Source: Verrucomicrobia bacterium UBA1183 (GTDB lineage Bacteria > Verrucomicrobiota > Verrucomicrobiia > Opitutales > UBA9783). From it: DNA of 64,000 nucleotides. The stretch covers positions 27,602 through 91,601 of the forward strand of contig DBYP01000018.1 in the NCBI GenBank assembly GCA_002309885.1, in the 5' to 3' direction. Numbering within the stretch: position 1 is the first letter of the stretch; each line of letters starts with the position of its first letter. Of this stretch, positions 36,001-39,000 are shown one piece after another. The position numbers were made by a program.

Positions 36001-39000
36001 TAACTCTACCCAAGCTGTTTTTGTCTGAATTTCCTCATTTAATTCCGTCAAAGAAGACGGTTGTGTGTTTGAATCTAACATCTCCATAACAAAGCAAGTG
36101 ATACGGTAAAAAATTTTGAGCGTTTTGTCAATATTTTCGCGAAAGGAGATTACAATTTCAAGGTTGAAAACAAAAAGCTTCCTGTCTATTGGCTTTGTAA
36201 AAATTTTGTCTCTCTCGCTGTATTTTATAATTAAAGGTGTAATCGAATGCATTTTGGGGTTGCCAATGTAAGGAAAGAGACTTAATCTCTTAGGCATATG
36301 AAATACACGGGGCAAGCTTTGGTTTATCGAGGATATGGAGATCCAGAAGAGGTATTACGTTTAGAAGAACGGACAATTTCAGATATAGCCCCGAATCAGG
36401 TGCTTGTAAAGCGTTTGGCAAGTGTGATACATCCTTCCGATTTCGGAAAGATTCGCGGGACGTATGAGCGTTTGAGCCAGCTTCCAGCAGTTGCAGGAAG
36501 GGAAGGCATTGGTGAAATCTGCGAAGTGGGTAAAGCTGTTGAAAACTTAAAATGCGGCGCACATGTTCGAATTCCCGAGGATGTGGGAACATGGCAAGAT
36601 TACTGTGTTTTAGATGAGAATGATGTTATTTGTGTTCCGGCGGGTTTGTCGATAGAAACAGCTGCGCAAACTTTTATCAATCCACCGACGGCACTGCGAT
36701 TGTTAAATGATTTTGTTCCTTTGCGTTCGGGGGATTGGGTCGTTCAGAATGCAGCCAATTCTTGTGTGGGACGCTGTGTTATCCAGTTGGCAAAGGTTTA
36801 TGGCTATAAAACAATCAATGTGGTTCGAGATGTAGCTCAAGCACAATCATTGATGGCCATGGGTGCAAATTGTGTTATAAGGCAAGATGCCTTAAAATCT
36901 ATCAGAAATTTTACCGATGGAGCGCTTCCGGTATTGGCATTGAACTCGGTAGGTGGCGAATCCGCACTGGAATTGATAAAGGCTTTAGCAGACAACGGAA
37001 CTATGGTTACGTTTGGAGCTATGACGAGCGACAAAGTGCGATTCCCGACAAGAGAACTGATATTTAAAAATATACAGCTAAGGGGCTTTTGGATGGATCG
37101 ATGGATTCGTTTGCGGCCAAAATTAGAGTATAATGCCTGTTTATGGCAAATTTTCAGTTTGTTACAAAGCAAAAAATTGGTGTTGCCTTGCGCTGAGACC
37201 TATCCTCTTTCTCAATGGCAAACCGCATTGGAGAAGTCGCAACAATCTAACCTGAACGGAAAGATATTGTTCGTTTGATATGAAAAATGACCTTACCGGA
37301 CATCGAGAACGCTTGAGAGAAAGATTCTTAAAGACCGGTTTTAGTGGTTTTGCGGAACATGAAGTTTTAGAGTTACTTCTTACGTTGTGCATCCCACGCA
37401 AAGATGTCAAAGGTTTGGCGAAAGCATTGCTTCAAAAGTTTGGTTCGCTCCGTTGTGTATTTGAAGCCAGTCCGGAAGAGTTAGAAAGCGTTCCTGGAAT
37501 CGGAAAAACTTCTGCGGTTTGTATTGCTTTAATTCGAGATTTTGCAAGTTATTATCTGCAGCAAAAAACGACACAGCAGGTACTATTTAGCAACAATGCT
37601 TCTTTGGTAGCATTTTGGAAATCAAGGCTCATGGGATTGAAGCATGAAGTGGTAGAAGTCGCTTATTTGGATGCCTCTTATCGTTTGATGCAAGACGGTA
37701 TTGAGCGTTTGGAGGAGGGCTTTATTACACGGACCCACCTGCAAATTCGGAAGGTATTGACTTCAGCTTTGAAGCGGGAAGCCAGCAACATCATCATTGC
37801 GCACAATCATCCGTCGGGTGATCCTAAACCTTCGCAAGCGGATCTTCAATTGACGCAAACACTGCAACATGTAGGCTATACGTTACAGATACGTTTATTG
37901 GATCATATCATTATCGCAAAAGATAATTTTTACTCGTTTCGACAAGAGGGGTTCCTAGAGTGAGTCTACGGAAGATAAAAAATTTATAAGTAAGGGAATT
38001 TTTTGAAAAAAGCTTCCCTTAAACCCTCAAAAACTTTCATAATTTTGCAACAATGTTGCAAAATGAGTGGGGTGCAGGGTCTCTGCCCTGCTTTTGAGAG
38101 GGGTTGGGAGAGCTTTTGCAAAAGATCTCTCAAAACAATGATAATTTGAACAGACTCTGCCTAGAATAATGGTATTTAGAGTTGCATTTTTTGTGGTATG
38201 CTTTAAAAGTTGAATATGTCCATGAAAGAAATTGTTCCTGAGGCGATTGTTTTAAATTCCATTCCGCACAGACCTCCGTTTTTGTTTGTTGACCGGGTGA
38301 TTGAGCTTTCCGACGATAAGATTATTGCCGAGCGTAAACTCAAAGCGGATGAGTTCTTTTTTAAGGGTCATTACCCGCAAATGGCGTTGATGCCAGGCGT
38401 ATTGATGTGTGAAGCTATATTCCAAACGGCAGGCGTTTTCATGAGCCAGAAGCTTTTAAAGGGTACCGACATTTCCGGGAAAGTTCCTGTTCTAACCCGT
38501 GTCGAATCCGCTAAATTTAAGCGTATGGCCTTCCCGGGCGACACATTGCTTTTGGAAGCCGTGTTTACGCAAAAGATAAAGGACTTTTATTTTTTCAAAG
38601 GTACTGCGAGAAAAGACGGGCAGATATTGGTAACCATTGAATTTGTTTTAGGTTTGGTTCCGGTTGAAGGGCTATGAGTTTATTGAATTTTAGCGAAAAA
38701 ACGTTTCTCGTTTTCGGTGTTGCCAATCGAAAGAGCATCGCGTGGTTCGTGGGTAAAACGCTGGAACAGTCCGGTGCGAACGTGCTTTATTCAGTACGTT
38801 CAGATAAACGCAAAACCGAGTTGTCGCGTTGGTTAAATCCGGAAAACATCTTCGTTTGCGATGTCGAGCAAGAATCGGAAATCGAGTGTTTAAAACAGTC
38901 TTTGGAAGCGCGTAATGTTCGTTTGGATGGTATCTTACACTCCTTGGCTTTTGCGAATTTTTCCGAAGGTTTCAAGCTCTTTTATGAGACCCAACGCAAG

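Follow-up and report, generated by a model that had tools for sequence, protein, structure and literature searches.

The BOX repeat of Streptococcus pneumoniae is a modular intergenic repeat, composed of boxA, an optional or repeated boxB, and boxC, that affects neighbouring genes in an orientation-dependent manner, and the pneumococcal SPRITE is an interspersed terminator-like repeat located near gene 3' ends, with a function that has been proposed but is unproven (PMC3049150). Correia elements (CREE, nemis) of Neisseria are MITE-like (miniature inverted-repeat transposable element), about 104-157 bp long, carry promoters and a site for integration host factor (IHF), are co-transcribed, form hairpins and have been reported to invert (PMC3184786, PMC10969869). 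Repetitive extragenic palindromes (REP) and bacterial interspersed mosaic elements (BIME) are biased towards 3' ends and influence mRNA stability and transcription attenuation (PMC3184786); REP are G+C-rich palindromes of 20-40 bp that bear a GTAG or CGTC tag and are associated with RAYT transposases (PMC3733652). Here, we describe a repeat family of comparable build in a 64-kb stretch of the genome of Verrucomicrobia bacterium UBA1183 (assembly GCA_002309885.1, contig DBYP01000018.1, positions 27,602 to 91,601; the whole stretch, of about 41% G+C, is referred to as the window). The window contains about 11 copies of one intergenic repeat, three of which carry a G+C-rich block, the cassette, that an earlier note on this DNA had described as a directional terminator. 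Our preferred explanation, with a probability of roughly 0.6, is that the repeat is a small palindromic element of the MITE or BIME type, intergenic and non-coding, and that the cassette is an internal module which its copies may carry or lack.

The family is unrelated in sequence to BOX, SPRITE, Correia and BIME elements, yet works like them. As in BOX, an optional, independently folding internal module is tolerated by the overall fold, and lone modules occur; unlike boxB, which is a 45-nt unit found in tandem arrays, the module here consists of one short G+C hairpin and its T run, and it sits on either side of the centre. The cassette resembles SPRITE in looking like an intrinsic terminator and lying near gene 3' ends, but SPRITE is terminator-like as a whole (an 18-bp duplex with a long U-rich tract) and shows strong enrichment between convergent gene pairs, whereas here only an optional sub-module is concerned and no orientation bias was seen (3/7 copies). 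Size classes that differ by an internal segment, hairpin folding and inversion are shared with Correia elements; in contrast to the defined terminal inverted repeats of the latter, the ends here are hairpins and there is no consistent target duplication. Correia elements show a TA duplication. The combination of palindromic units and facultative additional motifs into intergenic mosaics is reminiscent of BIME; unlike REP, however, the terminal hairpins (H1 and H3, described below) have A/T-rich loops and lack the GTAG or CGTC tag, and no RAYT or Y1 transposase is present among the Pfam families listed for the window open reading frames (ORFs; the first 25 of 108 families) or for 145 ORFs neighbouring members of the wider family. 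Like canonical intrinsic terminators, the cassette has, on one strand, a T run directly behind a G+C stem-loop; it differs from them in its short stem (7 bp, about -11 kcal/mol), in a T run that doubles as the base of a helix with the left arm, in being part of a repeated element, and in that more than half of its copies are not in sense behind a gene.

Organization of the repeat family and its cassette

The window copies are 75-145 nt long, intergenic and non-coding throughout. A full short copy of about 125 nt comprises, in order, a terminal hairpin (H1, consensus TAAGGGAAyTTTTTGAAAAAAGnTTCCCTTA), a left arm of 14-16 nt (AACCCTCAAAAACTTT), a central AU-rich hairpin (H2, ATTTTGCAACAATGTTGCAAAAT), an inverted right arm (AAAAGTTTTGAGrGr) of which the left arm is the inverted repeat, and a second terminal hairpin (H3, TGAGGGATTTTTTACAAAAAATCCCTCA). 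The left half (H1 and arm) and the right half (arm and H3) are inverted repeats, and whole-element folds have z-scores of -5 to -12, the lower value being that of the short copy at 11087-11212 (-57.5 kcal/mol, against shuffles). The arms and H2 of a short copy together form a single perfect AU-rich palindrome of 19-22 bp. Mosaic forms were found as well, namely H1 alone, an H3-like hairpin alone, H1-H2 halves, and full short and full long elements.

In the long form, about 6 nt (GAAAAG) of the right half of the palindrome are exchanged for TGGGGyGCAGGGyCTyTGCCCTGy, which contributes a 7-bp G+C stem and a 4-nt loop directly before the T run that opens the right arm. The three long copies in the window, with the parts of the copy behind radC, are the following.

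37991-38135, plus strand: long copy of 145 nt, between radC (37280-37963) and a FabA-like gene (38210-38677)
37991-38021, plus strand: H1 of this copy, TAAGGGAATTTTTTGAAAAAAGCTTCCCTTA, with the C diagnostic of the right-side long subfamily
38022-38037, plus strand: left arm of this copy, AACCCTCAAAAACTTT
38042-38064, plus strand: H2 of this copy, ATTTTGCAACAATGTTGCAAAAT
38068-38091, plus strand: cassette of this copy, TGGGGTGCAGGGTCTCTGCCCTGC; stem-loop 38074-38091 with 7 pairs, one of them G-U, and loop CTCT; -12.3 kcal/mol
38092-38104, plus strand: right arm, TTTTGAGAGGGGT, opened by the T run (TTTT); pairs with the left arm in the whole-element fold
38105-38132, plus strand: H3 of this copy, TGGGAGAGCTTTTGCAAAAGATCTCTCA
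6570-6713, plus strand: long copy; cassette 6647-6670, perfect stem-loop 6653-6670, then TTTTT
13094-13201, plus strand: truncated long copy; cassette 13158-13181; between a SycN-like gene (12714-13082) and a convergent UPF0102 gene (13214-13642)

The truncated copy has no right arm and only half each of H2 and H3, and its cassette stem contains a C-C mismatch and is followed by CCTTT, with only three T. The extra block after H2 that the earlier note had reported is present in all three copies, and alignment of the copies bears out its description of a modular family with short and long forms. Equally, H2 leads straight into the right arm in the six full-length short copies, those at 1602 (minus strand), 11087, 16269, 40467 (minus strand) and 60304 and one in the relative L019 (contigs and loci outside the window bear L numbers). 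Two details require correction: AATGA(G/C), counted as part of the block, belongs to the backbone because the short copy at 16269 also has AATGAC, and the block, which starts at TGGGG, is a replacement of GAAAAG rather than a clean insertion.

The string TGGGGyGCAGGGyCTyTGCCCT has three exact occurrences in the window, each just after H2, with none expected, and a search for TGGGGNGCAGGGNCTNTGCCCT allowing up to 3 mismatches matched only the three cassette sites, all on the plus strand, and nothing in any of 100 shuffles. The copies at 13094 and 37991 are base-for-base identical in independent short-read cow-rumen assemblies (L150 and L012, respectively), so that the cassette is not an assembly artefact; the 6570 copy is partially confirmed in L152 and L153.

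The other window copies, without a cassette, are as follows.

1602-1729, minus strand: short copy
11087-11212, plus strand: short copy, used as reference; its centre is a perfect 19-22-bp AU-rich palindrome with T runs in both directions
16269-16392, plus strand: short copy, with AATGAC as in the long forms
26729-26804, minus strand: partial copy with H1, arm and H2 only
40467-40593, minus strand: short copy at the gpsA / histidine-kinase junction
46408-46465, plus strand: decayed partial copy, beside a canonical terminator at 46522-46549 (minus strand)
60304-60434, plus strand: short copy

A strongly degenerate copy, of which an H3-like hairpin and arm-like pieces remain, lies between two plus-strand genes at 57751-57850.

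Descent and inversion of the cassette

A scan of metagenomes with the H1 pattern returned at least 120 contigs, a few of them true family members with the same H2. Among the matches listed, four contigs from other organisms (L094, L117, L140 and L146) carry a cassette, which together with the three window copies gives a sample of seven. The earlier note had presented the window cassettes as an insertion at the same position in three copies. The alignment points to descent instead: a diagnostic C in H1 (AAAAG-C-TTCC) is present in all four long copies with the cassette on the right side of H2 (6570, 13094, 37991 and L140), and was otherwise seen in one other aligned copy (the short copy L127) and in the partial copy at 46408. 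Given that all four share this substitution, the right-side long copies most likely form one subfamily descended from one long master copy.

In L117 and L146, the cassette reads AGrGGTGCAGGGCTGCTGCCCTGC-TTTT, with the same seven stem pairs and the loop TGCT, and stands as a mirror image on the H1 side of H2, with junctions as in the window (AAAATGAs / cassette / TTTTGAGrr). The left-side cassette of L094 is partly deleted. In L140, the cassette is on the right side and has the TGCT loop; three of its stem pairs are broken, and the right arm is missing. The TGCT variant is thus found on both sides of H2 (right in L140, left in L117 and L146), which shows, as judged from the aligned copies, that the inner block has undergone inversion relative to the end hairpins. 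The simplest route would be recombination between the inverted arms; the inversion reported for Correia elements provides a precedent (PMC10969869).

Presence and absence of the repeat in relatives

Orthologous sites were compared in relatives of the host. The radC-fabA spacer is about 50 nt long and repeat-free in four of them (L015, L019, L020/21 and L022; GpsA identity 79-83%). The window has at this place a 196-nt block (37964-38159) that holds the 145-nt long copy, with the ancestral 50-nt spacer kept downstream, and alignment with the empty sites reveals a duplication of the radC end.

37954-37963, plus strand: first copy of the duplication, CCTAGAGTGA, from the alignment with the empty sites of L015 and L019
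38160-38169, plus strand: second copy, CCTAGAATAA, 8/10 identical; retains the ancestral GAA TAA

The insert at radC exceeds the recognisable repeat by 51 nt (27 nt at 37964-37990 and 24 nt at 38136-38159) that are unmatched elsewhere in the window. The gpsA / histidine-kinase junction, occupied by a full short element in the window, is empty in L015 and L022, and contains a lone H1 in L019 (10985-11015) and only an H3-like hairpin in L020/21 (L020:4224-4253). The fully syntenic L149 is empty at the 11087 and 16269 sites and has a lone H1-like hairpin at the 13094 site (L149:11800-11829); in L148, such a hairpin occupies the 11087 site (L148:1287-1319). With orthologous sites empty or down to one hairpin, the element is mobile or unstable. 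It is small, non-coding and dispersed, has terminal inverted repeats, and shows presence/absence variation at the radC, gpsA, 11087 and 16269 sites, all of which are characteristics of MITEs. The family was not found in relatives of 60-66% identity over about 80 kb.

Because H1 is palindromic and H3 resembles H1, the two ends also act as direct repeats, and deletion between them would be a simple source of lone hairpins, which are either remnants of such H1-H3 deletion or seeds or targets for the full element. The lone hairpins in relatives often begin at the stop codon TAA.

In the DNA retrieved, looking for a parent transposon through arm pairs 0.3-4 kb apart and through Pfam families of neighbouring ORFs yielded only ordinary genes, and the IS30 and IS1595 genes encountered are targets or disruptors of the repeat, not its parents. 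Comparison of a long copy with plasmids and phages by BLAST gave no match, and H1 matched once among 2.9 million viral contigs, which argues that the element is not phage-borne. Several repeat copies reside in IS30-family transposase pseudogenes (L065:340-1373, L127:423-1000, L066:1085-1543, L117:1-840 and L143), where they separate the HTH part (..STIGRELKRN..) from the DDE part (..FGHWEGDTV..); in L117, the long copy links an N-terminal to a C-terminal IS30 part, as if two copies had recombined. These five contigs were considered as one orthologous site with short and long alleles, an interpretation that was ruled out, and as copies of an IS30-family pseudogene they are uninformative on gene terminators. 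In L028, a repeat copy is interrupted by an IS1595-type transposase gene.

Evaluation of alternative explanations

Modularity, common descent, inversion and patchy presence of the element are the observations on which we assign the cassette to an optional internal module. Transcribed in the forward direction, its hairpin and T run may serve as a small intrinsic terminator, probably a weak one, or as a hairpin that stabilises 3' ends; any termination would be a by-product at particular sites, such as behind radC and behind sycN, rather than what the cassette is distributed or maintained for. Several observations weigh against this interpretation. A target duplication (10 nt, 8/10 identical) is recognisable at radC and at none of the 11087, 16269 and 40467 sites, so that the term MITE denotes a resemblance rather than a mechanism. 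No transposase enrichment was detected beside wider-family elements (145 neighbouring ORFs, Pfam), and no transposase with matching ends among the first 25 of 108 Pfam families listed for the window ORFs. The conserved 5' TGGGGy of the cassette is not accounted for by this interpretation. Two of the three window long copies are in sense directly behind genes, and, with a sample as small as seven copies, four of them from other organisms, the cassette may still have a local terminator role in the genome of the window.

An actual functional terminator, directional and intrinsic, with long copies retained where a gene needs one, is the strongest competitor, albeit an unlikely one. The cassette has the canonical shape: as the earlier note had stated, it folds into a G+C hairpin (7-bp stem, 4-nt loop) that has T residues behind it (T4-5) on the forward strand, whereas the reverse strand has no T run at this place. 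A G+C stem-loop followed by at least four T is present at 6653-6670 (TTTTT) and 38074-38091 (TTTT), and is weak in the 13094 copy. The description of the stems as perfect at 6570, with one G-U pair at 37991 and one mismatch at 13094, holds, and so does the T run at 6570 and 37991, with only three T at 13094. The stem-loop energies are -12.3 and -14.3 kcal/mol (47-nt contexts), and the hairpin persists in the whole-element fold. The stem is kept while the loop varies by lineage (CTCT, CTTT or TGCT), and in the untruncated window copies (6570 and 37991), the two substitutions in the stem can be accommodated as G-U on the forward strand. The pneumococcal SPRITE repeats constitute a precedent (PMC3049150).

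The stability of the hairpin, -11 to -12 kcal/mol, is nonetheless unexceptional, with z-scores against dinucleotide shuffles of +0.36, -0.41 and 0.01, and hairpin-plus-T sites of cassette strength are as frequent in the window as in shuffles, a scan that is too permissive for ranking terminators. A canonical native terminator of this lineage, at 46522-46549 on the minus strand, is stronger (11 pairs, -15.7 kcal/mol). Decay is evident in three of the seven cassettes, L140 having three broken pairs, L094 a partial deletion, and the 13094 copy a mismatch, a truncation and only TTT. The genome also encodes Rho (17926-19656). Furthermore, the short-form centres (11130-11168 and 40510-40552) have T runs after the hairpin on both strands (-20.6 kcal/mol), so that short copies likewise have a bidirectional terminator-like shape and the cassette alters rather than creates it.

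Placement speaks on both sides. The copies at 37991 and 13094 follow plus-strand genes in sense, in line with the earlier note, at distances of 28 nt behind radC and about 12 nt behind sycN, and L094 lies 57 nt behind a hydrolase gene. These three are, however, the only ones of the seven cassette copies found in sense just behind a gene end. The 6570 copy occupies a divergent promoter region between a minus-strand ORF of 88 aa (6165-6431) and plus-strand alaS (6774/6810), with no promoter-like site between its cassette and alaS in a promoter scan; L146 adjoins the start of a gene; L117 lies in an IS30-family pseudogene, in antisense orientation; and L140 is likewise antisense, a minus-strand ORF ending inside it. 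A share of 3/7, in a small sample, matches random orientation, which had been named as the pattern that would contradict a terminator role, and of the proposal that the long form adds a directional terminator deployed after genes, the shape is supported and the deployment is not. Moreover, the 37991 copy sits in the adh-radC-fabA-fabG-gpsA row, which is tightly spaced in all relatives, so that an efficient terminator there would be polar on fabA-fabG-gpsA and cut off lipid-synthesis genes. Weak, incidental termination or 3'-end stabilisation at particular sites, as predicted from the shape, is plausible; the distribution of the copies does not indicate selection for termination.

A promoter borne by the element itself (TTGAAA in the H1 loop with CATAAT before H2) was rejected on account of its 29-nt spacer, the promoter scan having flagged only weak sites at the H3 edge. 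A long G+C hairpin followed by a T run, similar to the canonical terminator, occurs in L019 (5895-5928, as judged from sequence), and in both the window (46408-46549) and L019 (5759-5928) a repeat copy lies beside a terminator-like hairpin, the L019 copy full, the window copy decayed and apparently in the opposite orientation.

A further explanation, to which we give a rather low probability, regards the cassette as a leftover of a G+C-rich core hairpin that is central to a much wider family. Any action of this hairpin would be at the DNA level, for example in mobilisation, and the T run would be no more than the start of the arm. The wider family is conspicuous. A 24-nt H1 core, GGGAACTTTTTGAAAAAAGTTCCC, and the arm CCCTCAAAAACTTTT are unchanged in at least 120 contigs from sediment, termite gut, human gut and rumen metagenomes, with a G+C content of 34-68% (L028-L147 and L154; among them L130:1386-1558, L128:1629-1768 and L154:815-975); one of these contigs, L044, belongs to Thermodesulfobacteriota by its GroEL. 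Many of these elements have the same arm-core-arm'-H3 plan and H1 end, with differing, mostly G+C-rich, lineage-specific central hairpins, some of which start with GGGGTGCAG (L120) or contain GCAGGGC..GCCCTGC (L042); the 5' TGGGGy of the cassette would then be what remains of one side of a longer stem (GGGGTGCAGGG / CCCTGCACCCC). In 85 distinct metagenome copies, five pairs of the H1 stem outside the invariant core covary, with 158 double-change cells compared with 47 in shuffles (0/500 reach 158), and 95% of the cells in these variable pairs are paired, only 7 of about 360 paired cells being G-U. Because this covariation is nearly pure Watson-Crick, it would fit a constraint on DNA palindromy better than one on an RNA helix. 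Conversely, the short forms, which have no G+C hairpin, are in the majority and seem to spread well, the likeness to L120 and L042 is short and could be due to chance, and the two G-U pairs in cassette stems are mismatches in DNA.

More speculative, and in our estimation improbable, is the idea of a hitherto undescribed cross-phylum superfamily defined by the invariant GGGAACTTTTTGAAAAAAGTTCCC hairpin core, an outer stem covarying in Watson-Crick pairs only, CCCTCAAAAACTTTT and a central cargo slot, in which the cassette would be a terminator cargo flippable through the inverted arms. If true, this would be an element whose direction of termination can switch. Searches of existing collections gave no counterpart: with Rfam 15, the window produced only two tRNA hits at the gathering threshold, the region 37950-38220 only chance-level hits at E up to 10, and twenty related loci nothing beyond tRNAs; literature searches gave no match to the H1 sequence and nothing relevant on Verrucomicrobia plus MITE. 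The cassette pattern gave 10 chance matches, in unrelated G+C-rich genomes, among the GTDB species representatives, as expected since the source genome is not one of them.

That the cassette is a protein-binding site, for instance for a nucleoid protein in the manner of the IHF sites of long Correia elements and BIME-1, would be suggested by analogy (PMC3184786, PMC10969869) and by the conservation of the 5' TGGGGy and the stem sequence; it is very unlikely given that the cassette is unlike the A/T-rich IHF consensus and that its conserved part is a self-complementary G+C stem with a varying loop. Chance similarity or an assembly artefact can practically be dismissed in view of the shuffles (0/100), the identical sequence in independent assemblies and the related cassettes in other metagenomes.

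Host and genomic context

The host, an uncultured bacterium from the rumen, belongs to the Opitutales/Puniceicoccales group of Verrucomicrobiota. The closest named relatives of its GpsA and of a CopN-like protein are Puniceicoccales and Opitutales metagenome-assembled genomes, and proteins identical to those of the window were seen in bovine rumen data sets only. Type III secretion genes lie amid housekeeping genes at 11230-13082 of the window, encoding the CopN-like protein (397 aa), TyeA, a SycN/CesT chaperone and a second CesT hit.

12434-12712, window: TyeA
12714-13082, plus strand: SycN/CesT chaperone
17926-19656: Rho gene, its family assigned through the syntenic ortholog in L149

Relatives at a greater distance encode an ATP/ADP translocase (TLC) and FHIPEP (L019 and L025-L027 were listed with this observation). 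Together with the type III secretion genes, these proteins suggest a host-associated lifestyle for this gut Opitutales-like lineage.

In short-read assemblies of the same organism, the contig ends of L011, L014, L151, L152 and L153 fall inside H1 or H2, and the repeat family is a main cause of the fragmentation of this genome in public metagenome assemblies. The window proteins RadC, the SycN-like protein and the 88-aa ORF matched short contigs of the same organism that end at repeats, which confirmed the sequences and added no new copies. In one rumen assembly (L013:2296-2640), radC-H1-arm-H2 is joined to other sequence, with a BatA-like gene on the opposite strand and no cassette, which reflects either an assembly chimera formed across the repeat or a rearranged strain.

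Significance

The repeat explains why short-read assemblies of this genome break at these sites, and its recent expansion is the reason why intergenic distances differ from those of relatives. The terminator-shaped hairpins in the adh-radC-fabA-fabG-gpsA row and before alaS are natural test cases for polarity. More broadly, Verrucomicrobiota now provide an example of a bacterial repeat with an optional internal module, a kind of which few are known (BOX, Correia and BIME), and a module that changes sides by inversion is shown in such a repeat. The cross-phylum H1 core is possibly the more useful lead: the occurrence of the same 24 nt in at least two phyla of very different G+C implies a shared mobilising enzyme or an as-yet-undescribed conserved function at the DNA level.

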